This document shows, piece by piece, positions 44,899 through 62,340 of a stretch of DNA of 64,000 nucleotides. Source of the stretch: Pseudolabrys sp. (GTDB taxonomy: Bacteria > Pseudomonadota > Alphaproteobacteria > Rhizobiales > Xanthobacteraceae). Both the position numbers and the translations under genes were made by a program. The notes beneath the pieces are model-generated. The model saw only the letters and a list, made by a program, of their open reading frames with translations, did not search any database and was not told the DNA's origin. The stretch lies in assembly GCA_035499835.1 (NCBI GenBank), contig DATJYA010000358.1, forward strand, positions 170-64,169, read 5' to 3'. The first letter of the stretch is position 1. Each line of letters begins with the position of its first letter.

Positions 44899-44903
44899 AG
44901 AGA

Positions 44904-45247: not shown

Positions 45248-45688
45248 CTACTCTCCGCGGTCTTTGTACGAACCTCCGGCAACCCACGCATTGATCGTCG
45301 GACCGATAGCCGCGCCGGTGACAAGACCTTCGCGCCAATCATCGCTCGTTGGACGCACGATCAGCATCCAGCCATCACCGAACGGGTCCGTTGTCAGAAG
45401 GTCGGGCTTATCGACCAGCATCTCGTTCTGCGCCGCCACGGTACCGTCAAAAGCAGCGCGCGCTGCGCCGATCCATTTGCCGCCCTCAACCATCGCGAAC
45501 CAGCGTCCCTTCTCGAAGGCATGACCGATGCGCTTCGGCGTGAACACGAGAATCTCGCCCATCAGCGCCACAGCCCAGCTGGTAAAGCCGGTACGAAGCG
45601 TCCCATCCGTCTGCGGCTCGTACCAGATTTGGTTCTCGACATCGTAAAGCAGGTGCTCGGGGAAATCGTGATCTTGGATTTGGGCCAC
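45248..45688 (-). CDS. GcvH-fold lipoyl-carrier protein (LbpA-like)
   Basis: FPEHLLYD, GFTSWAVALMG, lipoyl-Lys motif VEGGKWIG (K71) and DPFGDGWM. GTG start. Confidence 0.8.
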   Translation of the reverse strand: MAQIQDHDFPEHLLYDVENQIWYEPQTDGTLRTGFTSWAVALMGEILVFTPKRIGHAFEKGRWFAMVEGGKWIGAARAAFDGTVAAQNEMLVDKPDLLTTDPFGDGWMLIVRPTSDDWREGLVTGAAIGPTINAWVAGGSYKDRGE

Positions 45689-45698
45689 GGTAACGCCT

Positions 45699-46076
45699 TC
45701 AGAAGGTGAGAACCCGGCATTCATCGCCCATGATGTCCTGGATCATGGCGGCGGCGCCCATTACACCCGTGCATTCCGGAATGAGATCGGCCTCGGACTT
45801 GTCGAACAATTCCAGGTTGGCCGGGCAAGCCCAAAACTGCGCGCCATGCCCATGCGCCTCTTTTATCCAATCGTAGACGGTCATGGGGTCGCCCGGTTTG
45901 ACATGTATCGCCGCGGCAACCCCTTTAAGCATGAGCTTGCCGGCGGTCGCAGTACACAAAACATCGACCTTATGATCCATCGCCGCCGCGACTGCCGCGT
46001 AATAGAACGGTGCGCCGAGTTCCTCGGCATTGCGCGGGTCCGTGTTAGCCAGGACAATCAGCAGGCGCCTAGTCAC
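45699..46076 (-). CDS. DsrE/DsrF-family sulfur-carrier-like protein
   Basis: 125 aa. PFYYAAVAAAMD, conserved FWAC Cys, GAAAMI and terminal VLTF. Confidence 0.8.
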   Translation of the reverse strand: MTRRLLIVLANTDPRNAEELGAPFYYAAVAAAMDHKVDVLCTATAGKLMLKGVAAAIHVKPGDPMTVYDWIKEAHGHGAQFWACPANLELFDKSEADLIPECTGVMGAAAMIQDIMGDECRVLTF

Positions 46077-46473
46077 GGCGGACTACCTCCGACCCAGCCT
46101 TTTCGCTTTTGCGACCGCCACTGCGGCGATAAGCGCGTCGGTGCTGATTCTCTTTTGCGAGCAGGCGTTCCTGCAGTACAAAATTTCGATGGCTGATAAC
46201 GGTTTCCCAGGCGAGAATTCCCGGATTCATATAAACCGTAGCACCTTCCAATCTGCGGCGGGCAATTTCAATTTTCTGCTTTTGACAATACCTGAGCCGC
46301 ACTTCGCGCGAGTTTTGATGACGACCAAGCAGTACCGAGCGCGGAAGGCGATAGAACCGCAGCGTATCAGGAATGTCGCCAGCCTGATGAAGTTCAACCA
46401 TTGCCGCGCTCATAGCAACGTTCCAGCGCGCCGGCAGCAGACCCGTATCCACTACCGTGAGCGAACCGGTCAT
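46069..46473 (-). pseudogene. Truncated/degenerate lipoate-protein ligase (LplA N-terminal half)
   Basis: DTG...NVAMS, TLRFY, VLLGRHQN and RRRLEGATVYMNPG (degenerate RRxxGGGxVYxD). Similarity is lost after about 95 aa and there is no catalytic KxxG. Confidence 0.65.
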
Positions 46474-46868
46474 TGCACCTCGACCTCGTCGACCCTGAGT
46501 CGTCGGCCCCATTTGTCAAAGAAATGGCCTTCATTGAGTGCGAGCGGGTCACCGTCAATGCGTGTTTCCAGCTCGCGGAGCTGCAGGCGCGCGCTCGGAT
46601 TGTCGAGTGGGCCGTCACGGGGGCCGGTCACCGGGAAGAACGACGCGCCGTCCCATTCCTGCCCGGAGCCGGCAAAAAGCACGGTGATTTCCGACCAATC
46701 GGTTTCATCACCGATGACGTTGAAATAGCTCGAACATAGCGGGCTGACAGTTGCCTCAGCGATTCTGACCAGCACCACAAGCGCGGTAAAGGCGCCGGTC
46801 CGAGCGAACTCTTCCGCCAGCCAGCGGTCAAAATCGGTCGGTTGCTTTGCGGAGTCAGAAATCGACAA
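46470..46868 (-). CDS. Hypothetical protein
   Basis: TTG start overlaps the upstream gene end and its stop overlaps the next ATG (ATGA). Protein-like acidic/aromatic sequence ending EGHFFDKWGRRL. Confidence 0.7.
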   Translation of the reverse strand: MSISDSAKQPTDFDRWLAEEFARTGAFTALVVLVRIAEATVSPLCSSYFNVIGDETDWSEITVLFAGSGQEWDGASFFPVTGPRDGPLDNPSARLQLRELETRIDGDPLALNEGHFFDKWGRRLRVDEVEVQ

Positions 46869-47316
46869 CGGGCGTCTCCGGCATGTAGTTTTCGAACAGG
46901 ATCCAGAACAGGTTCGGGTGGCTTTCGGCATACCAACGCTCGAATTCACCGAGCGCCGCCACCACGTCGGGCGGCGGCCCGTCCCCGCTTTGCGGTGGCG
47001 CCAGGCTTGCGAACATGGCCTGGGCAACGGGTGTGAAGCGAGACAACACAGCAGCGCGTGCGTCGCTGTCACTCGACCAGCCGAGCTTGGTTCGCAGCAC
47101 GGCGGTCGCAGCCGCGACTGCGATTTCCTCACTTTCGGCGCCGGCGATTGCGTCGGCAATGGACCGCATCAAATTGAACCGGCGGAACGCGAAGGCGCGC
47201 TCCCGCTCGAGCGCCTTGACGCGCGCCGCCACTTCGCGGCGGAATTCATCTTCCGCTATGTTCGCGCGTTCCGTCGCCTGCCGCAACACGTCGAGGAACG
47301 ATGGCCCGGGCGTCAT
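46855..47316 (-). CDS. Hypothetical helical protein
   Basis: GGAG RBS directly after the selB stop. 153 aa with coiled-coil N-terminus and FERWY...FWILFE...ETPVVDF C-terminus. Confidence 0.75.
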   Translation of the reverse strand: MTPGPSFLDVLRQATERANIAEDEFRREVAARVKALERERAFAFRRFNLMRSIADAIAGAESEEIAVAAATAVLRTKLGWSSDSDARAAVLSRFTPVAQAMFASLAPPQSGDGPPPDVVAALGEFERWYAESHPNLFWILFENYMPETPVVDF

Positions 47317-47328
47317 GTCGTTGCTCCG

Positions 47329-49380
47329 CTATCGTGGCGGAAGAGAGAGGGAGTCGAACCCACCAAGGACCGGCTCGCGGCCCCTCCCGGATTTGAAGTC
47401 CGGACGCCCCACCGGGGACGATTCTCTTCCTGAAGTGTCGACGCCGGCCTCGGCCGGCCAGCGAAACAGATCGAGGCGGTGCTTGTTGACGCGGCGCAGA
47501 TCGCCGCGGCGCAAGGTCACGCCATGCCGATCGAAAAATTCAAGAATCTGGATGGCGACCTTGCGGCCGTTGTCGAGGCGGTCGCGGAACTGCGCGGCAG
47601 CGAATTGTCCGTCGGCGGACGTGGCACTGAGGTCGACGATGATTTCCACCATCTCCGTCACGGTCCGGCGCAGAAAGAAATGATCGTGCGCCACCTCGTC
47701 CGTCCTTCCGATGCGCCCAAGCAGCTTGAGCAGGCGCCGCACGTCGGCTTCGTGCAACGCCAACATCCCGGCGATGTCGCGCACGCGCGGCGGGCGGAAG
47801 CGTTCGGCGCCGCCGATCAACGGCGAGACGCGCGCCCAGATTTTCTCATCGTCCGAAGTGAGCCGCACTTCGTGGCCAGCCAGCCGCACCCAGGCGCCGT
47901 CCAAAGCGATTTCCTTCTCGCGCACAAGTCCTTGTAGAATCGCCATAAATTCCGGCATTGGCAGTCGGGGCTGGAGCTGCAGCCGCAACCTTTCAAGGCC
48001 GATGCCCGGCAGATCGGGACTTGCCGCGTGAAAATCGTGCAGCGCCGCCAACAGGTCGCGCTTGAAACTCAGCCATACCGGCGTCGACAAGGCGACGATA
48101 CGCTCATCCACAGTCGCGGTGACGAGGCCGAGCCGTTCGGCAATCGCCTGCGCCTGCTCATCGGCGATGGCGCGGTCGCGGGCGAAAACCGACAGATCGA
48201 CATAGCGCGGCGCAATGTCCAGCAACGCCGCCAGCACAGCGGTCGGGTCGCCGACCGCACAAGCGCGCAACTGGGCCAGCCGCTCGGGCGAACGGCGCTT
48301 GCGCAATGGCGCGCGCAGATCGAGGAATTGGCCGCCGCCGATGGTACGCTGCGCCGTGGTGTCGCGCAGCACGAAGCGGTCGCCGGACGCCGCCGCGATC
48401 GGCCGGTCGAGCACGAGCTGGACCAGCGCCTCGCCGCCCGGCAAAATTGGCTCGTCGCCGAGGAGCACGATGCGGGCGCTGACGTCGGTTGCGGCATGAT
48501 GCAGACGCGCCGGCATCCATTGTGTCACCGGCTTCTGCTCGCTCGCCAGCAGCCGGAAGGTCGCGTCGATCCGGTCGGTGGGAGCATGCAGGTCCGGATC
48601 GAGTACCACCTGCCCGCGCGCGATGGCGTCCTTGGTGATGCCGTCGCCAGCAAGATTAAGCGCGCAGCGCTGGCCGGCGACGCCGCGGTCGCTCGACCTG
48701 TTCTGTGCATGAATGGAGCGCACACGCGCTACGAGGCCCGAAGGGCTGATCATGACGCGATCGCCCGTTGTCATCGCGCCGGAGAGCACCGTGCCCGTCA
48801 CCACCGTGCCGGTGCCGGGCAACGTAAACGACCGGTCGACGGCAAGGCGAAAGCGCTCGGCGGCGGTGCGGGCCTTGATCGGGCGCGCGGCGTCGAACAG
48901 CCGATCGCGCAAGTCGTCGACGCCGTCGCCGGTGACGGTCGAGACCGGAACGATATCGGCCCTTGCGAGGCTGGTGCCCTTGAGCAGTTGGGCGATGTCG
49001 GCGGCGACCTTATCGCGCCACGGCGGCGCCGCGAGGTCCGCCTTAGTGAGCGCGACGATGCCGCGCTCGATGCCGAGCAGATCGATGATGGCGAGATGTT
49101 CGCGTGTCTGCGGCATGACGCCGTCGTCGGCGGCAATGACCAGCAATGCGAAGTCAATGCCGGTAGCGCCGGCCAGCATGTTGTGGATGAATTTATCATG
49201 GCCCGGCACGTCGACAAAGCCGAGCACGGAGCCGTCCGGTGCCGGCAGGTAGGCAAAACCGAGATCGATGGATATGCCGCGCGCCTTTTCCTCCTTCAGC
49301 CGATCGGTATCGACGCCGGTGAGTGCGCGCACCAGCGACGTCTTGCCGTGATCGATATGGCCGGCGGTGCCGACGATCAT
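47329..49380 (-). CDS. selB: Selenocysteine-specific elongation factor
   Basis: MIVGTAGHIDHGKT, GISIDLGF, DVPGHDKF and the WH4 motif FRDRLDNGRKVAIQILEFFD. First in-frame stop is TAG at 47329. Confidence 0.96.
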   Translation of the reverse strand: MIVGTAGHIDHGKTSLVRALTGVDTDRLKEEKARGISIDLGFAYLPAPDGSVLGFVDVPGHDKFIHNMLAGATGIDFALLVIAADDGVMPQTREHLAIIDLLGIERGIVALTKADLAAPPWRDKVAADIAQLLKGTSLARADIVPVSTVTGDGVDDLRDRLFDAARPIKARTAAERFRLAVDRSFTLPGTGTVVTGTVLSGAMTTGDRVMISPSGLVARVRSIHAQNRSSDRGVAGQRCALNLAGDGITKDAIARGQVVLDPDLHAPTDRIDATFRLLASEQKPVTQWMPARLHHAATDVSARIVLLGDEPILPGGEALVQLVLDRPIAAASGDRFVLRDTTAQRTIGGGQFLDLRAPLRKRRSPERLAQLRACAVGDPTAVLAALLDIAPRYVDLSVFARDRAIADEQAQAIAERLGLVTATVDERIVALSTPVWLSFKRDLLAALHDFHAASPDLPGIGLERLRLQLQPRLPMPEFMAILQGLVREKEIALDGAWVRLAGHEVRLTSDDEKIWARVSPLIGGAERFRPPRVRDIAGMLALHEADVRRLLKLLGRIGRTDEVAHDHFFLRRTVTEMVEIIVDLSATSADGQFAAAQFRDRLDNGRKVAIQILEFFDRHGVTLRRGDLRRVNKHRLDLFRWPAEAGVDTSGRESSPVGRPDFKSGRGREPVLGGFDSLSLPPR
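47335..47430 (-). tRNA. selC: tRNA-Sec (UCA), 96 nt
   Basis: 8-bp acceptor stem GGAAGAGA/TCTCTTCC, 6-bp D stem with 4-nt loop, CTTCAAA anticodon loop, long variable arm, TTCGACT T loop and G73-CCA. Confidence 0.96.
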
Positions 49381-50168
49381 GGGGCGGGCTCCGGCAAGGG
49401 CGCGGCGGCGCGCGCCTCGGCCTGGGCAATGTCGGCAGGCGACAATGCGCAGTGCACCGCAAGGAAAAACTGGCCGGCTAGCGCCGAGCCGCCGGCGCGA
49501 GCCCGCAACAACCAGACAAAGGCCTCGACCGGATCGCGGCGAACGCCGGCGCCAAGGTGATAGGCCGCGCCGAGCATTGCCTGGCCATCGGCGTCGCCGC
49601 GTTCGGCGCCGCGCCGCCACCACATCACCGCCTGAGCGGCGTCGCGCCCGACGCCGAGCGCGTTGTGGTACAGCATGCCGAGGCGCGTCATCGAGGCGGC
49701 GACGCCCTGCTCCGCCGCCGCTTCGGCCCAACGGCGGGCCTCGAGGTAATCCGGCTCGGCGACTTCGCCTTCCAACAGCATCCAGCTCAGCATGTCCTGC
49801 GCCGGCCCGTCGCCCTGTTCGGCGGCCGCGCGGTAGTGCTCCACGGCGCGCGCGTAGTTCTGCTCGATGCCGTCGCCCTTGAAGTACAGCGCGGCCAGAT
49901 TGCGTTGCCCAACCGCATCGCCTGCTTCGGCCGCCAGCCTAAGCCATTTGGCGGCAAGGGCAGCATCGCGCTCTACACCCAGTCCCTCGGAGAAACAGGC
50001 GCCGACATTGTTCTGCGCCCGCGCCACACCGGATTGCGCCAACGGCCCCCAGATTTCGAGCGCGCGCGCGTAGTCGCCAAGGCTCGATGCCTCATAGGCC
50101 GCCGCCATTTGTCTGGCTATGCTCGCGCCGCCAGCGCGCGGCTTCGTCACCACATCAGGCCGGCGCAT
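49377..50168 (-). CDS. Sel1-like repeat (SLR) protein
   Basis: About five 36-aa repeats (AQNNVGACFSEGLGV, GQRNLAALYFKGDGI, LGMLYHNALGV, LGAAYHLGAGV). Overlaps both selA and selB. Start uncertain. Confidence 0.85.
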   Translation of the reverse strand: MRRPDVVTKPRAGGASIARQMAAAYEASSLGDYARALEIWGPLAQSGVARAQNNVGACFSEGLGVERDAALAAKWLRLAAEAGDAVGQRNLAALYFKGDGIEQNYARAVEHYRAAAEQGDGPAQDMLSWMLLEGEVAEPDYLEARRWAEAAAEQGVAASMTRLGMLYHNALGVGRDAAQAVMWWRRGAERGDADGQAMLGAAYHLGAGVRRDPVEAFVWLLRARAGGSALAGQFFLAVHCALSPADIAQAEARAAAPLPEPAP

Positions 50169-51570
50169 CGGCGGCCCCCGCGAGGTTTAAATTGGCGAGG
50201 TTGGCGACGAAGCCCTTTTCGTCCTCAAGGCACCGCAAGTCGAGGACCAACGCTTTGTCCTCGATGCGACCGACCACGGGAACCGGCAATTGGCGCAGCG
50301 CCGACGACAGCATCGCCAGCGCCCGCCCGCCGCCGCGCGCAGCATGCGGCCTGATGGCGAGGCCGGCGCTCGGTACGGCCTCAAGCGGTAGCGCGCCCGA
50401 GCCGATCTGGCTGACGCAGGATCCGACGGCGGCCTCGTAGCCATCGCCAATCTTGTTCGCGACGAACGGCAACAGCCGCGCGGCCAGCGCCTCGATCTCC
50501 TTTTTCGGCCGTGCGAGCAGGCGCATAGTCGGCAGCTGCTCGGCGAGCCTGTCCGGATTGCGATAGAGCCGCAGCGTCGCCTCCAACGCCGCGAGCCTGA
50601 TCTTGTCGATGCGCATCGCCCGCTTCATCGGATTGCTCTTGATGCGCGCGATCAGCTCCTTGCGGCCGACGATGAACCCCGCCTGCGGTCCGCCAAGTAG
50701 CTTGTCGCCGGAAAAGGTGACGAGATCGGCACCGTCGGCAACCGCTTCCTTCACCGTCAGCTCATGCACGAGCCCGAAACGGGCGAGATCGATCAGCGTG
50801 CCGGAGCCGAGATCGTTGACCAGCGGTACTTTTTTCGCATGCGCCAGCACGGCAAGCTCGCGCGCAGCGACCTCCTTGGTGAAGCCTTCGATGCGGTAAT
50901 TCGAGGTATGCACCTTGAGGACGAGACCGGTCTTCGGCCCGATGGCGCCGACGTAGTCCTTCTTGTGCGTGCGGTTGGTTGTGCCGACCTCGACGAGTTT
51001 TGCGCCGGCGCGGCTCATGATGTCCGGCATGCGGAAGGTGCCGCCGATCTCGATCAGTTCGCCGCGCGAGACGATGGCTTCACGCCCTTTGGCCAGAGTG
51101 TTGAGCACGAGCAGCACCGCGGCAGCGTTGTTGTTGACGACGGTGGCATCCTCGGCGCCGGTTAATTCGCACAGCAGCTCGCGCACCAGATCGTCGCGGT
51201 CGCCGCGGTGCCCGCCGCAGAGATCGAATTCGAGCGCGACGGCGTTGCGCATCGCCACGCTGGCGGCTTCGATCGCTGTCTCGGCCAATAATGCACGGCC
51301 GAGATTGGTGTGCAGGACGGTACCGGTCAGGTTGAACACCGGTCGCAGACTAGGCTGCGCATCCGCCTCAAGTTTTGCGAGCGCTGTCTGTTCGATGTCC
51401 GCGACGCTCCCCGAGATCCTTTCCCGCCGCGCCGCGGCCAGAGCATGGCGAACGGCGGCAACAACCGCGCTGCGGCCAAAGCGGTCGAGCGCCGCGGTCA
51501 TGCCTTCGCCGCGAACAACCTCATCGACCGAGGGTAACTCACGTAGCTGCGCGCTTGCCGTCTTTTCCAT
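50155..51570 (-). CDS. selA: L-seryl-tRNA(Sec) selenium transferase
   Basis: NLTGTVLHTNLGRA, VNNNAAA, EVGTTNRTH and FSGDKLLGGPQAG. Confidence 0.96.
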   Translation of the reverse strand: MEKTASAQLRELPSVDEVVRGEGMTAALDRFGRSAVVAAVRHALAAARRERISGSVADIEQTALAKLEADAQPSLRPVFNLTGTVLHTNLGRALLAETAIEAASVAMRNAVALEFDLCGGHRGDRDDLVRELLCELTGAEDATVVNNNAAAVLLVLNTLAKGREAIVSRGELIEIGGTFRMPDIMSRAGAKLVEVGTTNRTHKKDYVGAIGPKTGLVLKVHTSNYRIEGFTKEVAARELAVLAHAKKVPLVNDLGSGTLIDLARFGLVHELTVKEAVADGADLVTFSGDKLLGGPQAGFIVGRKELIARIKSNPMKRAMRIDKIRLAALEATLRLYRNPDRLAEQLPTMRLLARPKKEIEALAARLLPFVANKIGDGYEAAVGSCVSQIGSGALPLEAVPSAGLAIRPHAARGGGRALAMLSSALRQLPVPVVGRIEDKALVLDLRCLEDEKGFVANLANLNLAGAADAPA

Positions 51571-51578
51571 CGCCCGCC

Positions 51579-52496
51579 TCAATAGCCGAGCAGGAACGGA
51601 TTGACGGCACCGCGCTGGTAGCCTCCCTCACGGAGCAATAGATCGAGTCCCAAAGTCGCGATGTCATCGGCAACCGGATCGAGCGCAGGGTCTTTGTGCT
51701 GATGCATAATTTTCAGGTACCCGTGGCAAGTCTCGCAGGTTTCCGCCTTGACGGTCGCGGGTCCGCCGTCGAGCTCCTGATAGGCAATGCCCTTGGTCGC
51801 GTTGCACAATACGCATTTGATGCGCACGGCATGCCACTGCGTTGCGCACAGCGAACAGGAGCAGAAGCGTGTGCCGTGGGCGCCCTTCCAGCCGACGATC
51901 GCCGAAGCAACTGGTGCCCCGCCGCAGGACGGGCAAACGCCGTCGCCGATCGGAACCAGCGCCTCGACATCAAGCAGCGCGGCTGCCCGGGCGAAATGAA
52001 CTTGCAGTGCTGCCGCGACATAGACGTGATCGGCCATCATCTCGACCGGGATCGACTCGGCCAATACGTTGCGCAGCATGGCGTCGCGGCCGCTCGCATC
52101 GGCACCGCGCACGCGGTCGAGAGCCGCACGCGCTGTCTCCGGCATGTCGATTTCGGCCGACAGCGCGAACAGGCGATCGAATGTCGCGTCGAGCGCGGCG
52201 TCGGCGGTGAAATGGGTGCGATCGAGCGGCGGCATAGCATACTCGCGCGCCCGTGCGCGCGCCTCGGCCGCGGGCAGGTCCGGCGCCGGGAGTCCTTGCA
52301 GCAGGCGATGCAGGCAATCGCTCAATTGTCCGAGGAACTTGAGGTAAGCGCCAAGGCGATGGCCTTCGGCCACGGTCCTGAAACGCCGCGCGCGCTCGGC
52401 AAAAAGACTGGCGGGATCTGGCAGCCGCGCAAAAGGCGGAGCGGCAACATCGCCGATCACTGTCGGATCGGGCCGGAGAGAACCGGCTTTACTCAT
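51579..52496 (-). CDS. fdhE: Formate dehydrogenase accessory protein
   Basis: CPSCG, CSLCATQW..RIKCVLC, ETCETC and DPVADDIATLGLD. Confidence 0.93.
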   Translation of the reverse strand: MSKAGSLRPDPTVIGDVAAPPFARLPDPASLFAERARRFRTVAEGHRLGAYLKFLGQLSDCLHRLLQGLPAPDLPAAEARARAREYAMPPLDRTHFTADAALDATFDRLFALSAEIDMPETARAALDRVRGADASGRDAMLRNVLAESIPVEMMADHVYVAAALQVHFARAAALLDVEALVPIGDGVCPSCGGAPVASAIVGWKGAHGTRFCSCSLCATQWHAVRIKCVLCNATKGIAYQELDGGPATVKAETCETCHGYLKIMHQHKDPALDPVADDIATLGLDLLLREGGYQRGAVNPFLLGY

Positions 52497-52588
52497 AACG
52501 AAACCTCACGAACCGCACGGGCCACGTGACAGGACCGTCAATTTACACCCACATACGCCTGCTCACGAAAGCCGGCCGTCGCAACAAT

Positions 52589-53263
52589 CTATTCCACTTT
52601 GCCGCCGCTCACCAATTCCTTGAGCCACTTGCGATGATGGCGCCACGCCCAACCGCCGGTGACCTGACCCTTTGTCATCGCCCCAATGGTCCCCTTCACC
52701 CAGATCGCGGCATAAACGTGGACGATCCAGACGCAGATGATGGTCACCGCCGCCATCGAATGGATCAGCACCGCGACGCGCTTGGTCTCCACGCTGGTAA
52801 ACATGGAGAAGTACTGGTCCCAAATCACCAAGCCGGTGCAGATCAGCACAATGATCAGGATCGACATCAGCCAGAAGACGGCTTTTTGCCCGGCGTTGTA
52901 TTTGCCCACCTCCGGCAGCCGTTCCTCGTGCTTGGTGAGCACGTCTTTCAGGCGTGCGAGCCAGGTGCCGTCCTCCCCCTTCCACAGATTCGCCCGCCAG
53001 AAGCGGACGAACAGGCCGAAGAAACTAAAGAACAGCACAACGCCGATCCAGGGATGGATCATCCGAGTGATCTCCCCGCCGCCGAACAAAGCGGTGAGGA
53101 AGAACAGGTCCGGGTGGAACAGCGCTAGTCCCGAGAGCGCGAGCAGCACCAGCGAGATCGCGGTGATCCAGTGGTTGATGCGCGCGCCGCCAGTGTACCG
53201 GTCGACTTCGACTGGATCGCCCCGATGAACCTCGTCGCCTCGTTCGACATCATAAGCTGTCAT
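52589..53263 (-). CDS. fdnI: Formate dehydrogenase-N/O gamma (cytochrome b) subunit
   Basis: [25 protein letters not shown] and WAWRHH. Confidence 0.93.
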
Positions 53264-54213: not shown

Positions 54214-54224
54214 GGTTCCCTCCC

Positions 54225-57200
54225 CTACGCCACCGGGCCGGACGCGATAGGCTCAATATCGACCAGGAACGCCTTGTATTCAGGCGTTTCGATATTGGCG
54301 TCGCCGACATAGGGCGTGAGCGAATTCGGGCCGAAGCCCTTCCTCGCCGCACCCATGAAGCCCCAATGCAGGGGTATGCCGACGATGTGGACCGTCTTGC
54401 CGTCGCAGGTCAGCGGCTGGATGCGCTTGGTGACCACGGCTTTCGCCTTCACCGATCCGCGCTTGGACCAGACCCGGACCCAGCCGCCGCCCTTGATGTT
54501 TTTCTCTTTGGCGAGCTGCTCCGATATCTCGACAAAGAATTCGGGCTGCAGCGAGGCATTGATCTCGGCGTGCTTGGTCCAGAAGTGGAAGTGCTCGGTG
54601 AGCCGGTAGGACGTCGCCGCATAGGGGAAATCCTTGGCATCGCCGAACTGCTCCATATCGCCTTTGAAGACGCGGGCGGCGGGATTGCCGCGGACCTTCG
54701 GCGCCAGAACATTGACCACCGGAGATTCGAACGGCTCGTAGTGCGCCGGGAACGGCCCGTCGCGCATCATCGTCCGCGTGAACAGCCGCGCGGTGCCTTC
54801 CGGGTTCATGATGAAAGGCCCGACCACGTCTGGCTTGGCGTTCGGGGCAATGTCCGGCACGTCGTAGCCGGTCCACTTGGCCCCATCCCACCACAGCAGT
54901 TTGCGAGTCTCATCCCACGGGTTGCCGTTGATGTCGGCCGACGCACGATTGTAGAGGATGCGCCGGTTGACCGGCCACGACCACGACCATTTCGGGAAGG
55001 CGCCGGTGTCGTCGGGATCAGTGTTGTCGCGGCGGGCCATCTGATTGCCCGCCTCGGTATAGGAGCCGGAATAGATCCAGCAGCCGCAGGCCGTCGAGCC
55101 GTCGTCGCGCAACACGGCGAAGCTGACGACCTGCTTGCCCTTTTGCAGGATGGTCTTGGTCGCGTCATTCGGATCGGGGACGTCCGCGACGACGTAGCCG
55201 CTGACTTCCTTGGCGATTTCGTCCGGCTGCGGGTAGCCCGGATCCTTGTATGGCCATACGAGCTTGGTGAGCGGATCGGAAAACGCTCCGCCCTCCTTCT
55301 CATACAGCGCTTTAAGCCGCTGCCAGATCTGCGCCATGATCCAGGCATCGTGCTTGGCCTCGCCCGGCGGCGTGCCGCCGGCCCAATGCCATTGCAGCCA
55401 GCGGCCGGAATTGGTGAGCGAGCCCTCGTCCTCGGCAAAGCAGGTGGTCGGAAGCTCGATCACCTCGGTCTGGATGCTCGAGGAGTTCACATCGTTGTAC
55501 TCGCCGTGATTCTCCCAGAAGCGCGCCGTCTCGGTCTGCAGCGGATCCATGACGACGAGGAACTTGAGCCTGGAGAGCGCCGCGGTGAGCTTCTTGCGGT
55601 TCGGGAACGACAGCAGGGGATTGAAGCCCTGGCAGAAGTACCCGTTCATCTTACCTTCGTGCATCAACTCGAATGCGCGAAGCACGTCGTAAGCCGGGAC
55701 ATCCAGCTTGGGCAGCCAGTCGTAAGCCCAGTTGTTTTCCGGCGTGGCCGCGTCGCCCCACATCGACTTCTGGAAGCTGACGAAGAACTTCCTGTAGTTC
55801 TGCCAGTAGCTCATCTGGTTCGGCCGCAACGGCTTGAAACCGCGCGTCGACATGTAGACGTCGAAGGTCGGCTCCTTTTCGTTGGGGATCGTCAGATAGC
55901 CGGGGATCAGGTTCGACATCAAGCCGAGATCGGTCAGCCCCTGGATGTTGGAGTGACCGCGCAAGGCGTTCATGCCACCGCCGCGCACGCCGATATTGCC
56001 GAGAATAAGCTGCAACATCGCCATCGCGCGGATGTTCTGCGACCCCTTCGAATGCTGGGTCCAGCCCAGCGCGTACATTGAGGTCATCGTCTTGGTCGGC
56101 GTCGAACACTCGCCGATCATCTCGCAGACCTTGGTGAATTTGGCCTTGGGCGTGCCGCAAATGCGCTCGACCATTTCGGGCGTGTAAACCGCAACGTGCT
56201 TCTTCAGCAGGCTCCAGACGCTGCGCGGGTTGTCCATGTCTGATACCACATAGCCGTCGGCACCGAGCTGATAGTCCCAGGTCGACTTGTTGTAGTCGCG
56301 CTTGATCTCGTCGTAGCCGGTGAACAGGCCGTCCTGATAATCGAAGCCGTCCTTGACCACGTAAGGCGCGTTTGTGAACGCTTTGACGTAATCCCACTGC
56401 ACCTTGTTGTTGTCGATGCAGTACTTGATCACGCCGAGCAGGAACGCGATGTCCGTACCCTGGCGGATCGGCGCGTACATGTCGGACACTGAGGCCGAGC
56501 GCGTGTAACGCGGATCAACAACAATGAGCTTGGCGCCGCGGTTGGCTTTCGCCTCCGTGACCCATTTGAATCCGCACGGGTGCGCCTCAGCGGCGTTGCC
56601 ACCCATGATCACGACAAGGTCGGTATTCTTGATATCCGTCCAAGAGTTCGTCATTGCACCGCGACCGAATGTTGGGGCCAGACTGGCCACCGTCGGTCCG
56701 TGTCAAACTCTTGCTTGGTTATCGAATGCCAACATCCCAGCGCCGCGCACGACCTTGTACGTGACGAACGCTGTTTCGTTTGTGGTTGCCGAGGCGGCGA
56801 GGAAACCCGTGGTCAGCCACCGGTTCACCGTGATGCCGTCGTTGTTCTTGGCGATGAAGTTCTTGTCGCGGTCGTCCTTCATCAGCCGCGCGACGCGGTC
56901 GAGCGCCACGTCCCACGACACGCGCTCGAACTTGTCCGAACCGGCCTTGCGGATCTGCGGATACTTGGTGCGCGTCTCCGAGTGCACCATGTCGAGCAGC
57001 GCCGCACCCTTAGGGCATAACGTGCCGCGATTGGTCGGATGATCGGTATCGCCTTCGATGTGGATAATGTCGGCCTTCTCACCCTTCGCAAGGTTGCCCT
57101 TGGAATACATGATGATGCCGCAGGCGACCGAGCAATATGTGCAGGTGTTGCGGGTTTCGGTGGTGCCGAGAAGTTTGAAGGGTCGAATCTCCGCTGCATA

Positions 57201-57296
57201 AGCGGCTTCGATATCTCCAAAGCCAAGCGCTCCGATTGTTGTACCGGCAAGACCCGCGCCGGCGCCTTTCATAAATTGGCGCCGCGAGAGTTCCAT
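54225..57296 (-). CDS. fdnG: Selenocysteine-containing formate dehydrogenase-N/O alpha subunit (1023 aa, Sec198)
   Basis: ORFs 56703-57380 and 54225-56690 are in frame across TGA 56703-56705, giving [26 protein letters not shown]. Tat leader [15 protein letters not shown] and [10 protein letters not shown]. Confidence 0.96.
56663..56702 (-). promoter_or_regulatory. Bacterial SECIS element
   Basis: 11 nt after UGA: GG-U(bulge)-GGCCA-GUC-UGGCC-CC, with a lower stem GACCGA/UCGGUC. Same geometry as enterobacterial fdnG/fdhF SECIS. Confidence 0.88.
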
Positions 57297-57352
57297 GTTC
57301 ACGGTGGGCCTCCTTGAGACCATTCGCCCCCAACGGGGGACATTTTCACCGA

Positions 57353-57376
57353 GGGCATGTCTCCCCAGACATGCCC
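57353..57376 (-). other. 10-bp hairpin in the fdnG leader
   Basis: GGGCATGTCT-CCCC-AGACATGCCC. Confidence 0.55.
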
Positions 57377-57523
57377 CCATGAGCGGAATCCAAGTTCGAA
57401 TAACAAAACGCTATTTTTTAAGCTCGGCGAAGTCAAACTGTTCCAGAATTTTCACGAGAAATTGCGAAACGGATTTCTGGATTTATTGCACTGCTCATCG
57501 GCAGCGCGAGCGCATGAACTACC

Positions 57524-57540
57524 CATAGCCTTAGGCTATG
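57524..57540. promoter_or_regulatory. LysR-type operator (ATAG-N7-CTAT) in the divergent fdnG/tlpA promoter region
   Basis: Perfect palindrome CATAGCCT-T-AGGCTATG containing T-N11-A. Confidence 0.55.
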
Positions 57541-57631
57541 ACTCAGCGAACGAATGCGTACTAGCACGGTTCTATATCGGACCGCGTACCAAAGTTGACC
57601 GCGCGGGATACTCCGCGCACTATCAAGCATC

Positions 57632-58255
57632 GTGAAATGTCGAGTGGCTCCCGAGGTTCGGGGCACATCACTCCGTGTCGTCGCCGCGGCGATCACCTGT
57701 CTCGCTGCAGTTGCGTGCAGCGCGATCGGCTTTTTGCGAGTCGCAAGCGCCGCCGAATTGCAGCCTTGGACGGCAGGCACATACGCGCCATTCAGCCTGC
57801 CGGACGTGAAAGGCACCCCTATCGCACTCGGCTCTTACCGCGGTCATGTCGTGCTGGTGCATTTCTTTGCGACGTGGTGCGAACCCTGCCTGACGGAACT
57901 GCCGGCGCTCGGCCGGCTGGCGGCCCGCGGCGCAGGCAAGATCAAAGTGCTGGCGATTTCAGTCGCCGAGGACGATTCGCGGGTGCGCCGGTTTTTACAA
58001 ACCACGCCGGTCGATTTTCCCGTCGCGCTTGACGGCGACCGTGCAGTCGCCAAGGCGTGGGGCGTCTTCACCCTTCCCACCACGATCGTTCTCGACGCAA
58101 GATCGGATCCGCGGCTGATGGCGCCAGCCGATTTCGATTGGGACAGCATCGATCCCGGCGAACTCGCGGCCACGATCGCGCGGGCGCCGGTGGACGGCAC
58201 GAACGCGCCTACGACATCCAATTACACAGAAAAGCTTCCACACCGAGGAGGATGA
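57632..58255 (+). CDS. TlpA/ResA-like periplasmic thioredoxin
   Basis: N-terminal hydrophobic segment, HFFATWCEPC and cis-Pro loop TLPTT. Start uncertain. Confidence 0.85.
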   Translation: MKCRVAPEVRGTSLRVVAAAITCLAAVACSAIGFLRVASAAELQPWTAGTYAPFSLPDVKGTPIALGSYRGHVVLVHFFATWCEPCLTELPALGRLAARGAGKIKVLAISVAEDDSRVRRFLQTTPVDFPVALDGDRAVAKAWGVFTLPTTIVLDARSDPRLMAPADFDWDSIDPGELAATIARAPVDGTNAPTTSNYTEKLPHRGG

Positions 58256-58258
58256 CAA

Positions 58259-59365
58259 ATGCACTTTGACCGACGCGACTTCCTGAAGACCGGCACGGCG
58301 TTATCGCTCGCCGCCGGGTTGCCGAAACTCGCCTATGCGGACGTGGCCTTCGATCCCAAACCCGGCATCTGGCGAAATTTCGAAATTACGACCAGGCTCG
58401 AGATTGCCAAGCCCGAAGGCGTCACCCAGGCATGGGTCCCGCTGCCGTCGGTGAACGAGAAGGACTGGTTTAAGTCGAGCGGCAACACGTGGAAGACCAA
58501 CGGCAAGGCCGCGCTGGCGCGCGATCCCCACTATGGCGCTGAGATGCTGCACGTCCAATGGGCCGCGAGCGAAGCCGCTCCGATCGTCGAAGTCACCAGC
58601 AAGATTTCCACGCAGGATCGCGCGGTTGATTTGAGCAAGCCCGAGGTTCCGTCGATCAAGCTCGGTGCGGCCGAACGCAAATTCAATACTGAAGGCAGCG
58701 AGCTCATACCAGTCGACGGCATCGTCAAGCAGACCTCGGACAAGATCGTTGTGGGCAAAAACACCGAGGTCGAGAAGGTGCATGCAATCTATGAATGGAT
58801 CGTCGAGAACACATTCCGTGACGGCAAGGTACGCGGTTGCGGCATTGGCGACATCGCCGCAATGCTCAAGACCGGCAATCTCGGCGGCAAGTGCGCCGAC
58901 CTCAACGCGCTTTTTGTCGGGCTGGTGCGCGCCGCCGATATTCCGGCACGCGACGTTTACGGCATTCGCGTCGCGCCGTCGAAATTCGGCTTCAAGGCCC
59001 TCGGCGCCGGCTCGGAGACCGTCACCAAGGCGCAACATTGCCGCGCCGAGGTCTTCCTCAACGGTTATGGCTGGGTGGCGACCGACCCCGCCGACGTGCG
59101 CAAGGTGGTGCTGGAGGAGCCGCCGGGCAAGCTTGCAATCGACGACCCCAAGGTTGTCGCCGCTCGCAAGACGCTGTTCGGGGCCTGGGAGGGCAACTGG
59201 CTCGCCTATAATTTCGCGCACGACGTGGCATTGCCCGGTTCCAAGGGTCCGAAGCTCGGCTTCCTGATGTATCCGCAGGCCGAATGCGGGCCGTCGCGGC
59301 TCGACTGCCTGGATCCCGATACATTTGAATATACGATCAAGTCGAAGGAGATTACCGGGGCGTGA
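58259..59365 (+). CDS. Tat-exported transglutaminase-like cysteine enzyme
   Basis: DRRDFLK leader. Triad GGKCADLN / QHCRAEVF / TDPAD. GGAGG RBS. Confidence 0.85.
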   Translation: MHFDRRDFLKTGTALSLAAGLPKLAYADVAFDPKPGIWRNFEITTRLEIAKPEGVTQAWVPLPSVNEKDWFKSSGNTWKTNGKAALARDPHYGAEMLHVQWAASEAAPIVEVTSKISTQDRAVDLSKPEVPSIKLGAAERKFNTEGSELIPVDGIVKQTSDKIVVGKNTEVEKVHAIYEWIVENTFRDGKVRGCGIGDIAAMLKTGNLGGKCADLNALFVGLVRAADIPARDVYGIRVAPSKFGFKALGAGSETVTKAQHCRAEVFLNGYGWVATDPADVRKVVLEEPPGKLAIDDPKVVAARKTLFGAWEGNWLAYNFAHDVALPGSKGPKLGFLMYPQAECGPSRLDCLDPDTFEYTIKSKEITGA

Positions 59366-59497
59366 TGTTCCTTCGGCGCCAAATCGAACGGGCGCCGCCG
59401 CCGCGGCGCCCGCTTTTAAAAGCCGCCATGTGCTGGCGGCATGGAACCATTTGCCGACGGCAGCCGTTGCTCGTGAAATCTCCCACAGGAGGCCACG

Positions 59498-59791
59498 ATG
59501 AGGGCGGTTGGACTACCGATGGCATTTGCCGCGGCTTTATTGGCGATATCCGCTGGCGCTTCGTTCGCGCAGAACAGCGCCGGCCACCAGGAGAAAGGGT
59601 CAACCGGCTGGAGCGGCGCCTCGAAGGATCAGCCGAGCCAGAGCGCCGGCAAGGCCACAGCATCGACGACAGGCCAGAAAACCGCGGCGGAAAACGACGC
59701 GGCGGAGGCGCGCGATCAGCCATTCATGGCTACAGGCGAGGATCTCAATGGACCGCCGACGCAGTTCGCCCCCGACGCGACGCCGGAATAA
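59498..59791 (+). CDS. Small exported low-complexity protein
   Basis: AGGAGG RBS, signal peptide ending SFA-Q, and a polar disordered body. Confidence 0.65.
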   Translation: MRAVGLPMAFAAALLAISAGASFAQNSAGHQEKGSTGWSGASKDQPSQSAGKATASTTGQKTAAENDAAEARDQPFMATGEDLNGPPTQFAPDATPE

Positions 59792-59855
59792 GCACGCCCA
59801 CGACGGGATCAGGCTCCCCGGACGCCTCGCAGGCCGATAAGGATCGGTTGCTCCT

Positions 59856-60116
59856 ATGTTGAAGCAACCGATGGCCTCGGATTCGCAAACAACAGAAACC
59901 GTGCTCGATCTGCGCGGCCTGCGCTGCCCGCAGCCGGTGCTGCGCGCCAAGAAGGCGTTGCGCAACGTGCCAGTGGGGGGAACGCTGGTTCTCGAATGCA
60001 CCGATCCTCTGACGGTGATCGACGTGCCGCACTTCGTCGGGCAAACCGGCCATTCGCTCAGCGCGCAAACGCGCGACGGCGGCATTTACATCTTCAAGAT
60101 CGTCAAACAGCGATGA
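59856..60116 (+). CDS. TusA/SirA-family sulfur carrier
   Basis: LDLRGLRCPQPVL, TDP..IDVPHF. Confidence 0.88.
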   Translation: MLKQPMASDSQTTETVLDLRGLRCPQPVLRAKKALRNVPVGGTLVLECTDPLTVIDVPHFVGQTGHSLSAQTRDGGIYIFKIVKQR

Positions 60117-60120
60117 TGCC

Positions 60121-61275
60121 ATGATGCCAGTTTATCTCGACTACAATGCAACCACCCCCGTGGATTCGCGCGTGCTCGCGGCGATGCTGCCGTACCTGCG
60201 CGACGAATTCGGCAATCCATCATCGACGCACGCTCTGGGCGTTAGGGCGCACGAGGCAGTGGAGAGGGCGCGAGCCCAGGTCGCCGCACTCATTGGCGCT
60301 GCGCCCGACGAAATCATTTTCACCAGCGGCGGCACCGAGGCCAGCAACTTGGCCATCCGTGGCGCCGTCAACATCGACGGCAGGCGCCGCGGCGTCGTCA
60401 CCACGACGATTGAGCACCCGGCGACGGAAACGTGCTGCGCCTTCCTTGAGGCGGCCCAGCATAAAATCACGCGCGTAGCGTCACAGCCCGACGGACTTGT
60501 GGACCCAGCACGAATAGCAGCGGCGCTCGATGGCGGGACGGCGCTGGTGACCATCATTCACGCACAAAACGAAATCGGAACGATCGAGCCGGTTGCCGAG
60601 ATCGCTGCAGCAGCGAAGCAGCGCGGCGCCCTTGCCCACGCCGACGCGGCGCAATCGGCCGGCAAGATTCCCATCGATGTCGGCCAGCTGGGCGTCGATT
60701 TCCTGTCGATTGCCGGACATAAATTGTACGCGCCGAAGGGCGTCGGCGCGCTTTATGTCCGCCGCGGCATTGACCTGCCGCCATTGCTGCTCGGAGCCGG
60801 CCAGGACCGCGGCCGCCGGCCCGGCACCGAAAATGTCCCCTATATCGTCGCTCTTAGCGAAGCCTGCCGGATCGCCGGCACAATGCTTGAGGGCGAACGG
60901 CAGCGACTCTCCGAATTGACCGAGAGGCTCTTTACCGGTCTCAAGCGCGAGATACCCGGCCTCATCCTTACCGGTCATCGGACGCGGCGCCTGCCGAACA
61001 CGCTCAACGTTCTCTTTCCCGATGTGTCAGGCCGCAAGCTGCTGGAACAGTGTCCGCGCGTTATGGCCTCGACCGGTTCCGCTTGCCACGCCGACGGCGA
61101 GGACCCGTCCGCCATTCTGACCGCGCTCGGCATCCCGCGCGAGCGGGCACTCGGAGCCGTTCGCCTGTCGTTGGGACGAGCCACGACCAAAGAAGAAGTC
61201 GAAACCGCTGCCGCCAATTTGGTCGCCGCGTGGCGCACGCTGCGCCAGCCAATACCGGAACAAATTGCGGGCTGA
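60121..61275 (+). CDS. Group-I NifS/IscS-like cysteine desulfurase / selenocysteine lyase
   Basis: YLDYNATTP, FTSGGTE, GHKLYAPKG (PLP Lys), RPGTEN and STGSACH (catalytic Cys). Confidence 0.9.
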   Translation: MMPVYLDYNATTPVDSRVLAAMLPYLRDEFGNPSSTHALGVRAHEAVERARAQVAALIGAAPDEIIFTSGGTEASNLAIRGAVNIDGRRRGVVTTTIEHPATETCCAFLEAAQHKITRVASQPDGLVDPARIAAALDGGTALVTIIHAQNEIGTIEPVAEIAAAAKQRGALAHADAAQSAGKIPIDVGQLGVDFLSIAGHKLYAPKGVGALYVRRGIDLPPLLLGAGQDRGRRPGTENVPYIVALSEACRIAGTMLEGERQRLSELTERLFTGLKREIPGLILTGHRTRRLPNTLNVLFPDVSGRKLLEQCPRVMASTGSACHADGEDPSAILTALGIPRERALGAVRLSLGRATTKEEVETAAANLVAAWRTLRQPIPEQIAG

Positions 61276-61290
61276 CTCGGAGAAAGCACA

Positions 61291-62340
61291 ATGAACATCA
61301 TGCAGCCCATTCGTCTGAGCCACCTGTCGCACGGCGGCGGTTGCGGCTGCAAGCTGGCGCCATCCGTGCTGCAGCAACTGCTGTCGAGCCATCCGGCAAC
61401 GACGCCCTATAAGCAGTTGCTGGTCGGCGTCGAAACCGGCGACGACGCCGCCGTCTGGGAACTCGACAACGGCACCTGCATCATCGCCACCACCGATTTC
61501 TTCATGCCGATGGTGGACGAGCCGCGCGATTTCGGACGCATCGCGGCTACCAACGCGATCTCCGATGTCTATGCGATGGGCGGCGCACCGATCATGGCGC
61601 TCGCCATTCTCGGCATGCCGGTCGACAAAATCCCGCCCGAGATGGTGCGCAAAATCCTGGAAGGCGGCGCATCGGTCTGCGAGGCAGCCGGCATTCCCAT
61701 CGCCGGAGGCCATTCCATCGATTCACCGGAGCCGATCTATGGTCTTGCCGTCATCGGCACTGGAACAAAAGGCAACATACGGCGCAATTCCGATGCCAAG
61801 GCCGGCGACAAGCTGATTCTCACGAAAGCGCTCGGCGTCGGCATTTATTCTGCCGCCTTCAAGAAAGGTGCGCTTTCCCCTAGCGGATATGAGGAGTTTA
61901 TTGCGACCACGACATTGCTCAATCGTGTCGGCACCAAACTCGCCAAAGAAGCCGCCGTTCACGCGATGACCGACGTCACTGGGTTCGGCCTGCTCGGGCA
62001 TACATTGGAAATGGCGCGCGGCTCAAACAAAACGGTGGCGATCAATTCTTCGACACTGCTGTACCTCAAGGAGGCCGCCGCGCTCGCGCAGAAGGGCTTC
62101 ATCACCGGCGCGTCGGGACGGAATTGGAAGAGCTACGATATGAACGTCACACTTCCCGACGATACCCTGGAATGGCAGCGGCAGTTGTATTGCGATCCTC
62201 AGACCTCGGGCGGATTGCTGGTGTCGTGCGCGGCGCACCGCGCCGCGGCATTGCTCGACATAATCGTGGCCGACGGCTACCCGGCCGCGCGGATCATCGG
62301 CAGCGTCGAGAACGGCGAAGCGCGCGTCGTCGTTGAATAG
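61291..62340 (+). CDS. selD: Selenide, water dikinase (Cys-type)
   Basis: [39 protein letters not shown] and DPQTSGGLL. Confidence 0.96.

Follow-up and report, generated by a model that had tools for sequence, protein, structure and literature searches.

The window analysed here is a stretch of 64,000 nucleotides from contig DATJYA010000358.1 of Pseudolabrys sp., part of a metagenome-assembled genome (MAG; 65% complete, 503 contigs, ~63% G+C) whose nearest relatives are Pseudolabrys-like Xanthobacteraceae. It contains a unit of ~17 kb, organized as two divergent operons, that combines a selenocysteine (Sec)-dependent formate dehydrogenase (FDH) of the FDH-N type and the genes for Sec synthesis with relatives of the carrier proteins of the sHdr sulfur-oxidation system. 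These relatives are a DsrE3C-type sulfurtransferase, a lipoyl carrier derived from LbpA, a TusA-type carrier and a fragment of a lipoate-protein ligase. The accessory genes, which we call the module and propose to encode a chalcogen relay, form two halves at opposite ends of the unit, ~14 kb apart. Gene calls are based on Pfam and NCBIfam profiles, ARAGORN and Rfam, and these domain and RNA searches confirmed the gene list of the first-pass annotation, with its minus-strand run and its divergent plus-strand run. L-, G- and P-numbers denote the loci, genomes and proteins of this analysis. Many of the sampled genomes are MAGs; G000 is listed together with G053, G105 and G404, of which G053 and G105 are nearly complete relatives. 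L081 comes from Pseudolabrys sp. Root1462, L064 from Stellaceae and L118 from G644.

The minus-strand operon opens with fdnG (54225-57380), which encodes a twin-arginine translocation (Tat) signal and contains an in-frame UGA at 56703-56705 within the motif ARVUHGPT, as well as a Sec insertion sequence element (SECIS_3, 56650-56708, minus strand; 83.9 bits in Rfam against a gathering score of 63). It continues, on the same strand, with fdnH (53260-54213; Fer4_11 with Form-deh_trans), fdnI (52589-53263; Ni_hydr_CYTB), fdhE (51579-52496; FdhE N-terminal, central and C-terminal domains) and selA (50155-51582; PF03841, 540 bits). A gene for a Sel1-repeat protein (SLR; 49377-50168; PF08238, 137.5 bits) separates selA from the selB open reading frame (ORF; 47329-49731), which contains the GTP_EFTU, SelB beta-barrel and SelB winged-helix domains. 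The true start of selB is probably near 49400, since the GTPase domain begins only at residue 118 of the ORF. The gene for tRNA-Sec, selC, lies at 47335-47430 (ARAGORN; Rfam RF01852, 75.7 bits). With the UGA and SECIS in fdnG, and selA, selB, selC and selD all present, the locus has the complete set of features of a Sec-dependent FDH-N. Two further genes follow, hyp1 (46855-47316), which encodes a conserved helical protein of 153 aa with no known family, and hyp2 (46470-46868), which encodes a conserved alpha/beta protein of 132 aa with no known fold. The operon closes with the LplA-type fragment (46069-46512; PF21948 positions 2-85 of 200), the DsrE3C-type sulfurtransferase (45699-46076, 125 aa; PF13686/PF02635) and the LbpA-derived, GcvH-like lipoyl carrier, ‘GcvHL’ (45248-45724; PF01597, 77.6 bits), whose true start is likely near 45688, giving a protein of 146 aa. 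Just past the carrier gene the G+C content falls to 0.545 (44000-46000), and from ~42250 to 45248 there is no convincing ORF, the sole match being a weak Pkinase hit in 44294-45010 (E 0.0016).

The plus-strand operon begins with two genes recognized by domain searches, one for a TlpA-type thiol:disulfide oxidoreductase (57632-58255) and one for a Tat-signal transglutaminase-like protein (58259-59365). They are followed by the genes for a signal-peptide protein of 97 aa (59498-59791), a TusA-type carrier with the motif CPQP (59856-60116; PF01206, 72.6 bits) and a NifS/IscS-type cysteine desulfurase or selenocysteine lyase of the class-V aminotransferases (60121-61275; PF00266, 254.6 bits). The last gene is a Cys-form selD with the motif GGGCGCK (61291-62340; NF002098, 489 bits, above the cut-off). 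The 97-aa protein, whose frame is conserved in L081 and L019, replaces a 166-aa hypothetical protein placed before tusA by the first-pass annotation (59362-59862), which proved to be an Arg-rich wrong frame. It carries the motifs KGSTGW.G and QP.MATGEDL.GP..QF.P..TPE, sits between the transglutaminase gene and tusA, and is absent from L082, L085 and L102, where a gap of 74-110 bp separates these genes.

Profile searches of the window returned no match to FdhD, FdsD, Pyr_redox_dim (Lpd), sHdrA/B/C or LipS/LipT, so that the carrier lacks the sHdr partners of an LbpA here. The earlier statement that fdhD, sHdr and lpd genes are missing from the window therefore holds, and gcvP was not found even genome-wide in this 65%-complete MAG. 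The accompanying idea that the relay acts in place of FdhD is not supported, as contig C44 of this MAG carries an fdhD gene (243.5 bits); in L020, an fdhD copy (91% identical) lies 3 kb downstream of the module.

Comparison with ten SelA-positive loci of the same family that carry no relay (20 kb fetched for each) separates the core of the unit from its accessory genes. Eight of these ten show selD-transglutaminase-TlpA facing fdnGHI-fdhE-selA-SLR-selB-hyp1-hyp2, and none of TusA, NifS, DsrE or the carrier was found in any of the ten. Because hyp1, hyp2, the Sel1-repeat protein, TlpA and the transglutaminase are kept in relay-less loci, they are part of the core of the Sec-FDH unit. The accessory set, gained or lost as one, consists of TusA (often with NifS), DsrE, the carrier and sometimes the ligase. 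The two hypothetical genes had been proposed as relay parts, an assignment that their retention in 8 of 10 relay-less Sec-FDH loci does not bear out. They are instead candidate Sec or FDH maturation factors. Their structures were predicted by AlphaFold2 with a mean per-residue confidence (pLDDT) of 90.6 for hyp1 and 87 for hyp2, and searches of these folds with Foldseek against the PDB, with VIA-align and by shape in the ESM atlas gave no meaningful named match (best Z 5.0), the ESM-atlas matches being unnamed clusters only.

Other features of the core genes were also recorded. The genes hyp1 and hyp2 are translationally coupled and located behind selB-selC with or without the relay (also in L105, L106 and L109-L114). 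The Sel1-repeat gene is present in 42 of the 52 loci with long upstream DNA. The periplasmic TlpA redoxin and the Tat transglutaminase lie beside selD in nearly all loci of the family, relay or not (seen in L081, L082, L085, L102 and L105-L114), and both occur in 8 of the 10 relay-less loci. A transglutaminase-like enzyme has also been listed among the STRING partners of YedF (PMC5322559). In L042, from an uncultured alphaproteobacterium, an insert of ~8.5 kb separates selB from hyp1 (between 126 and 8712), with selA further upstream on the same contig.

A locus scan limited to one genome per species identified 69 loci, mostly in Hyphomicrobiales (Pseudolabrys, Rhodoplanes, Bradyrhizobium sp. 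Ec3.3, Methylocella, Rhodomicrobium and Astrobacterium), with a few in Stellaceae and Rhodospirillaceae. In 68 of these 69 species-level loci the carrier gene is immediately preceded by the DsrE gene, and fdnI, fdhE and selA are found upstream in the window's order in 47 of the 52 loci with at least 6.5 kb of upstream DNA. This arrangement is far beyond chance, and the locus represents a conserved two-operon Sec/FDH-N unit of Xanthobacteraceae and neighboring families.

Co-inheritance was assessed in 400 genomes of the window's family, 159 SelA-positive and 241 SelA-negative, with module DsrE defined by at least 69% identity. It was detected in 45 of the SelA-positive genomes and in two of the SelA-negative ones, both of which are MAGs (72% and 84% complete). 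Similarly, the TusA ortholog, defined at ≥62% identity across a clear gap from paralogs at ≤57%, follows module DsrE closely: 43 genomes carry both, 5 only TusA, 4 only DsrE and 348 neither. Homologs of the carrier and of DsrE thus co-occur with Sec/FDH loci in other genomes, so that the lack of co-occurrence named by the first-pass annotation as a refutation of its proposal is not seen. The accessory set is patchily distributed, occurring in at least 17 genera and in 6 of 14 genomes within the window's own genus.

Several loci depart from the common arrangement. In L027 and L002-L004 the gene order is fdsD-like, excisionase-type helix-turn-helix (HTH), DsrE, carrier; the HTH_17 gene directly precedes the DsrE-carrier pair (L027:9285-9509, L002:9273-9500). 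In G105 a homologous gene of this excisionase family marks the outer edge of the selD operon (L102:179-331), and no fdsD lies upstream there. A deletion origin of the arrangement in L027 and L002-L004 is plausible. In L019, selD-nifS-tusA-transglutaminase faces hyp2-DsrE-carrier, and neither SelA nor SelU was found; this locus, which comes from a MAG, is best read as the product of one deletion that removed tlpA through hyp1. L019 was considered as a discriminator between a selenium and an FDH function and set aside, being best read as a deletion derivative and having no SelU. The positions of HTH_17, the deletion-like appearance of L019 and L027 and the patchy distribution suggest that the locus may be mobile or deletion-prone.

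Such derivatives raise the question of whether the accessory genes are a functionless leftover, a decaying sHdr fragment that landed next to a Sec locus. The ligase remnant, the dip in G+C to 0.545 at 44-46 kb and the derivatives L019 and L027 would fit this explanation, which nevertheless has to accommodate a DsrE protein whose cysteines are invariant and whose identity across several families is 66-94%, and a carrier with 59 invariant positions among 24 members, Lys83 included. The gene pair is, moreover, intact in 68 of 69 loci, and its tight co-occurrence with TusA and SelA indicates selection. We therefore give the leftover explanation very little credence and regard the set as, very probably, an accessory relay that functions in connection with the Sec-FDH unit. 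The suggestion that carriers had been repurposed as a relay is in this respect supported by homology, synteny, co-inheritance and the absence of sHdr genes.

The source of the accessory genes is indicated by the closest homologs found outside Sec loci, which are genes of sHdr clusters in the same family. In four family genomes the DsrE protein is only 60-62% identical to the window's, and their loci are textbook sHdr clusters by Pfam content, with sLpl(AB)-LipS-LipT-LipS facing DsrE3C-sHdrC1B1A..C2B2-LbpA-TusA (LipS being a radical-SAM protein). The window's DsrE, carrier and ligase fragment share 60%, 44% and 40% identity, respectively, with DsrE3C, LbpA and sLpl(AB) from one such cluster, and 8 of 11 further DsrE3C matches in a class-wide sample also belong to sHdr clusters. 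The window's DsrE, GcvH-like protein, ligase fragment and TusA are accordingly related to sHdr DsrE3C, LbpA, sLpl(AB) and TusA, as had been proposed.

A maximum-likelihood tree, the comparison with true GcvH and sHdr LbpA that the first-pass annotation had called for, places the carrier within LbpA, away from canonical GcvH. The LbpA superclade (support 99/98) is separate from canonical GcvH, and the module carriers form one clade within it (100/98), with the sHdr LbpAs from this family as sister group. G053 and G105 contain no second GCV_H-family or DsrE3C-type gene, so that those of the module are their only ones. Taken together, homology and phylogeny indicate that the accessory relay derives from carriers of the sHdr sulfur-oxidation system. 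The basal members of the module, L087, G105/P0131 and L064 (Stellaceae), keep the LbpA cysteine pair and a full-length ligase, and a crown clade of 22 rows (100/99), the window included, has lost both. The window itself represents an intermediate state, with a cysteine-free carrier and a decaying ligase.

A second gene order is represented by family f65 (L118 and L119), in which LbpA with its cysteine pair and DsrE are divergent from an Lpl-like gene (357 aa) that leads into fdnGHI-fdhE-selA-selB. A quick tree placed the DsrE of f65 outside the main module clade, which suggests that this may be an independent recruitment; if so, it would strengthen the functional link, without naming the cargo. 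In G644, a member of f65, selD is located elsewhere; its sister genomes G771 and G473 encode a Pyr_redox::SelD fusion, next to selB/hyp1 or fdnG (L127, L128). In L115, also of f65, an ABC peptide transporter is the neighbor of a DsrE gene and an Lpl-like gene, and no carrier was detected.

Despite its GcvH-like fold family, the carrier is not a glycine-cleavage protein, because it misses the GcvH equivalog cut-offs (79.3 against 117 for NF002270, 54.4 against 115.85 for TIGR00527), because gcvP was not found in G000, G053, G105 or G404, and because the module carrier is the sole full-length GCV_H match in G053 and G105. In these two genomes neither a canonical GcvH nor gcvP was found, and the glycine cleavage system is seemingly absent altogether. 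The family around the carrier is tight, with 1110 proteins matched at E ≤ 0.001, the best 120 of which are 72-91% identical to it. The window's protein contains no cysteine at all and has Lys83 at the lipoyl position; this residue aligns with the lipoyl-lysine of Mycobacterium tuberculosis GcvH (3hgb) and is invariant in 24 orthologs, from which lipoylation of the carrier at Lys83 may be inferred. The hallmark cysteines of LbpA are Cys7 and Cys144/145 (preprint 10.64898/2026.10.01.755906). This pair has been lost from the window's carrier and from most of the crown clade, and it is retained in L064, G105, P0131, L087 and L118. Isoelectric points were tried as a discriminator and rejected, as the crown-clade median of 4.99 and the sHdr LbpA value of 5.1 gave no useful separation. 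P0137 is a protein of 1391 aa with three carrier-like stretches (best 32% identity), that is, a multi-H-protein-domain fusion.

The first-pass annotation had listed a dedicated lipoate ligase, and a working enzyme is not borne out in the window, where the catalytic domain is incomplete (2-85 of 200 profile positions). The fragment aligns to residues 1-111 of the 262-aa full-length ortholog in L064 and then runs into an unrelated tail. Its DNA has a lower G+C content, and its start is likely the ATG at 46473, overlapping the hyp2 stop. By this alignment, the lplA-type gene can be identified as a remnant, comprising the N-terminal ~110 residues, of the module's lipoate-protein ligase. Full-length ligase genes are present in L064, G105, L087 and L118.

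The DsrE protein corresponds in detail to its sHdr counterpart. Hyphomicrobium denitrificans DsrE3C is encoded by a gene of 378 bp and binds sulfur at Cys84 (PMC11094781); the window's gene likewise measures 378 bp for 125 aa and conserves Cys84. Cys41, Cys84 and Cys102 are invariant, Cys84 lies in a WACPANL motif that is invariant in 30 sequences, sHdr-linked ones among them, and a DsrE cysteine aligns with the Cys of 3mc3. We know of no solved DsrE-LbpA complex. In our prediction, which combined three DsrE chains with one carrier, each with its own alignments, and assumed the DsrE trimer, the complex scored 0.83 and the best of three controls 0.00. Of 80 solved complexes, 58 attain the score mark, as do 2 of 110 mismatched pairs, a calibration that is rough for our own alignments and the 3+1 set-up. 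At least 94% of the contacts recur between runs, and the partner pLDDT is at least 83. In the modelled interface, carrier residues 80-87, which form the Lys83 hairpin, face residues 85-86 and 89-90 of one DsrE subunit and also contact residues 25-34 of the neighboring copy. The model thus supports binding, with the lipoyl-lysine hairpin at DsrE Cys84, the geometry that would be expected for atom transfer to or from a lipoyl arm.

At the other end of the unit, TusA reaches 72.6 bits against a cut-off of 28.6 for PF01206 and shows the CPxP signature in the motif LRCPQP. It does not reach the NCBIfam TusA equivalog (54.7 against 78), nor is it a YedF-type fusion (30.1 bits against a cut-off of 110 for TIGR03527). 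The NifS-type enzyme scores 432.8 with TIGR03402, under the cut-off of 530.75, and reaches no equivalog cut-off. TusA stands beside selD or nifS-selD in all 7 relay loci examined, and NifS is missing in two of them. In the five genomes checked for this arrangement, selD is always divergently upstream of fdnG and always accompanied by TusA; TlpA, the transglutaminase and NifS are also there in 3 of these 5.

The carrier is connected to selD in a second way. In five genomes, selD or a SelD fusion begins within 9 nt of the carrier stop (L036, L040, L047, L064, L069). L047 has a plain selD that begins 9 nt past this stop, and in L036, L040 and L069 the ATG of a 745-751-aa SelD-matching gene follows it directly (L036:6114-8351, L040:5442-7679, L069:1865-4120), the C-terminal parts of the encoded proteins matching SelD at 33-36% identity. 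In L064, a gene for a 743-aa protein (L064:10450-12681) overlaps the carrier stop by 4 nt; its product is a Pyr_redox_2::SelD fusion (TIGR03169, 445 against 310; TIGR00476, 300 against 125). SelD-oxidoreductase fusions as such are already known (NCBIfam models TIGR03169 and TIGR04369). By analogy, a flavin disulfide reductase next to a lipoyl protein may recall the pairing of E3 with H protein.

These fusions bear on an explanation in terms of redox upkeep, in which a dihydrolipoyl carrier, with DsrE as its adaptor, would act as a dithiol reductant with no atom transfer at all, reducing selenite or selenotrisulfides to selenide, or keeping SelD, the Sec of FdnG or the Mo=S ligand reduced. Lipoyl proteins that feed Ohr/OsmC peroxidases provide an analogy, and GcvH-like proteins have been proposed as electron donors of OsmC in Hyphomicrobium (preprint 10.64898/2026.10.01.755906). 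A disulfide-oxidoreductase domain fused to the SelD that abuts the carrier (L036, L040, L064, L069) would find a natural substrate in the lipoyl disulfide, and the loss of the LbpA cysteines from crown carriers is likewise compatible with such a role. A pure reductant, however, would need neither the strictly conserved Cys84 of DsrE3C nor co-inheritance with TusA and NifS, and no lipoyl-group reductase is encoded in the window. We consider redox upkeep alone quite improbable.

The reading that we favor is an sHdr-derived accessory chalcogen relay within the Sec/FDH unit, with selenium as its cargo, to which as a whole we assign a probability of roughly 45%. NifS would take selenium from selenocysteine (or sulfur from cysteine) as an enzyme-bound perselenide or persulfide, and the atom would pass to the TusA cysteine and then to Cys84 of trimeric DsrE. 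The lipoyl arm on Lys83 of the carrier would dock at Cys84 and keep the atom as a lipoyl perselenide or a cyclic S-Se-S species. From there, the carrier would donate it to the Cys17-type SelD, yielding selenophosphate for SelA. The link to SelD is drawn because TusA is beside selD or nifS-selD in every relay locus examined for it and because selD abuts the carrier stop in five genomes; the occurrence of module DsrE in just 2 of 241 SelA-negative genomes indicates that the accessory set does not track FDH in general. Both the direction of transfer and the identity of the cargo as selenium rather than sulfur are our inference. A more specific version, in which protein-bound lipoate is a selenium carrier, loaded as a perselenide or selenotrisulfide via NifS, TusA and DsrE3C and serving as the physiological donor to SelD, is put forward tentatively, and there the Pyr_redox_2::SelD fusions would release selenide from the carrier. 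A paper from the Stadtman laboratory reportedly dealt with selenotrisulfides of lipoic acid.

The same four proteins could, alternatively, carry sulfur. NifS, TusA, DsrE and the carrier would then feed persulfide sulfur into molybdopterin synthesis, or pass it to FdhD as the source of the Mo=S ligand in the bis-molybdopterin guanine dinucleotide (bis-MGD) cofactor, and would boost or repair FDH in oxic soils alongside FdhD, not replacing it. All characterized relatives carry sulfur (PMC11094781). The ligase-like gene of f65 heads the fdnG operon, with the DsrE/LbpA pair divergent, and an fdsD-like gene stands beside the pair in L002-L004 and L027. Against these points, the module does not follow FDH generally, being present in 2 of 241 SelA-negative family genomes; TusA is located at selD rather than at either fdnG or fdhE; five genomes show translational coupling of selD to the carrier gene; and the arrangements of L027 and L019 resemble deletion derivatives of the full unit. 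Selenium delivery to SelD is therefore preferred over sulfur delivery to the cofactor, which we judge unlikely, and the reductant role and mixed or other roles share the remaining probability.

A number of observations weigh against selenium delivery by this relay. Some of them favor a function in FDH maturation: the module is always encoded with the structural genes of FDH-N and fdhE, G105 and L072 have an fds-type FDH operon a few kb further downstream, and Roseovarius mucosus, which has no sHdr, carries an LbpA-like gene downstream of fdhGBFD-fdsD (preprint 10.64898/2026.10.01.755906). In the lineage of L027 and L002-L004 an intact DsrE-carrier pair accompanies an orphan fdsD-like gene, and neither SelA nor SelD was found in that MAG. 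No TusA was found beside selD in f65. Because SelU was not found and FDH-N is seemingly the sole use of selenophosphate in these genomes, phyletic patterns cannot distinguish Sec from FDH-N; related genomes are, in addition, non-independent samples. The relay was not found in ~70% of the SelA-positive genomes of the family and is therefore dispensable for Sec-FDH, an optional enhancer and not basic machinery. Other observations concern the carrier, whose lipoylation is putative. The crown clade, including the window, has lost both LbpA cysteines and the ligase; G053 has only one LplA/LipB-family gene; and canonical E. coli Lpl(AB) gave little or no modification of LbpAs (preprint 10.64898/2026.10.01.755906). 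The DsrE-carrier complex, finally, is a prediction.

Placed among known systems, the locus most closely resembles the sHdr-LbpA set of H. denitrificans (PMC11094781; preprint 10.64898/2026.10.01.755906), with which it shares a 125-aa DsrE3C with Cys84, a carrier of the LbpA clade, TusA and an sLpl-related ligase. It differs from that set in being embedded in a Sec/FDH-N locus without sHdrA/B/C or LipS/LipT, in the flanking of TusA by NifS and selD, and in the loss of the carrier cysteine pair and of the ligase. A second precedent is YedF, a fusion of TusA-like and DsrE-like parts identified by comparative genomics as a candidate for selenium metabolism and FDH biogenesis (PMC5322559). As in YedF/FdhU, TusA and DsrE folds are tied here to selD and a Sec formate dehydrogenase; unlike in YedF/FdhU, each fold has a gene of its own at one or the other end of the locus, a lipoyl carrier accompanies them, and the DsrE is of the DsrE3C type, whereas that of YedF is of the CGxC type.

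Delivery of selenium from NifS-like lyases to SelD is itself familiar from E. coli CsdB/IscS and the selenocysteine lyases, and the window similarly has a class-V pyridoxal phosphate enzyme directly upstream of a Cys-type SelD. What differs is the presence of three carrier proteins between or beside these two, and the constancy of TusA, given that NifS is missing in 2 of 7 relay loci. The locus also shares a desulfurase-fed supply to a formate dehydrogenase with the IscS-FdhD pair, which sulfurates the bis-MGD cofactor of FDH; in contrast to that pair, the module has no FdhD-like fold, fdhD is located elsewhere, and the module tracks the Sec trait and not FDH generally. The R. mucosus locus, compared by its published description only, likewise places an LbpA-type carrier and an sLpl pathway next to FDH genes without sHdr. 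That FDH is cytoplasmic and non-Sec, and the preprint gives neither a link to selABCD nor a function.

In full-text literature searches, no paper linked LbpA or sLpl to selenium or the sel genes, the only near match being the remark on R. mucosus in the preprint. The recruitment of TusA-DsrE3C-LbpA(-sLpl) into a Sec/FDH-N locus appears not to have been described before, and the same appears to be true of the later loss of the carrier cysteines and the private ligase. The candidacy of YedF/FdhU for selenium metabolism (PMC5322559), NifS-to-SelD delivery and SelD-oxidoreductase fusions are already known.

These findings touch on several aspects of chalcogen metabolism. The specific delivery of selenium to selenophosphate synthetase against a large excess of sulfur is a long-standing question: NifS-like enzymes and thiols deliver selenium in vitro, and to our knowledge no dedicated carrier chain has been established in vivo. 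The locus offers a concrete and genetically tractable candidate for selenium delivery, with three carriers of known chemistry tied to the Sec trait within a family, and it is present in cultured hosts such as Pseudolabrys sp. Root1462, Methylocella sp. CPCC 101449, Astrobacterium formosum and Rhodoplanes species, among them Rhodoplanes serenus. It also extends the roles known for LbpA-type lipoyl proteins to a setting other than sulfur oxidation. If the cargo were sulfur for the molybdenum cofactor, the module would represent a new maturation branch for oxygen-exposed formate dehydrogenases, relevant to CO2-reduction biocatalysis. If protein-bound lipoate does carry selenium, this would be the first role of lipoate in selenium metabolism and a dedicated selenium-trafficking pathway in aerobic bacteria. 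For the organisms that bear the locus, the selenium relay, if true, would provide a protected and selenium-selective supply for a single selenoprotein, FdnG, in oxygen-exposed soil bacteria.

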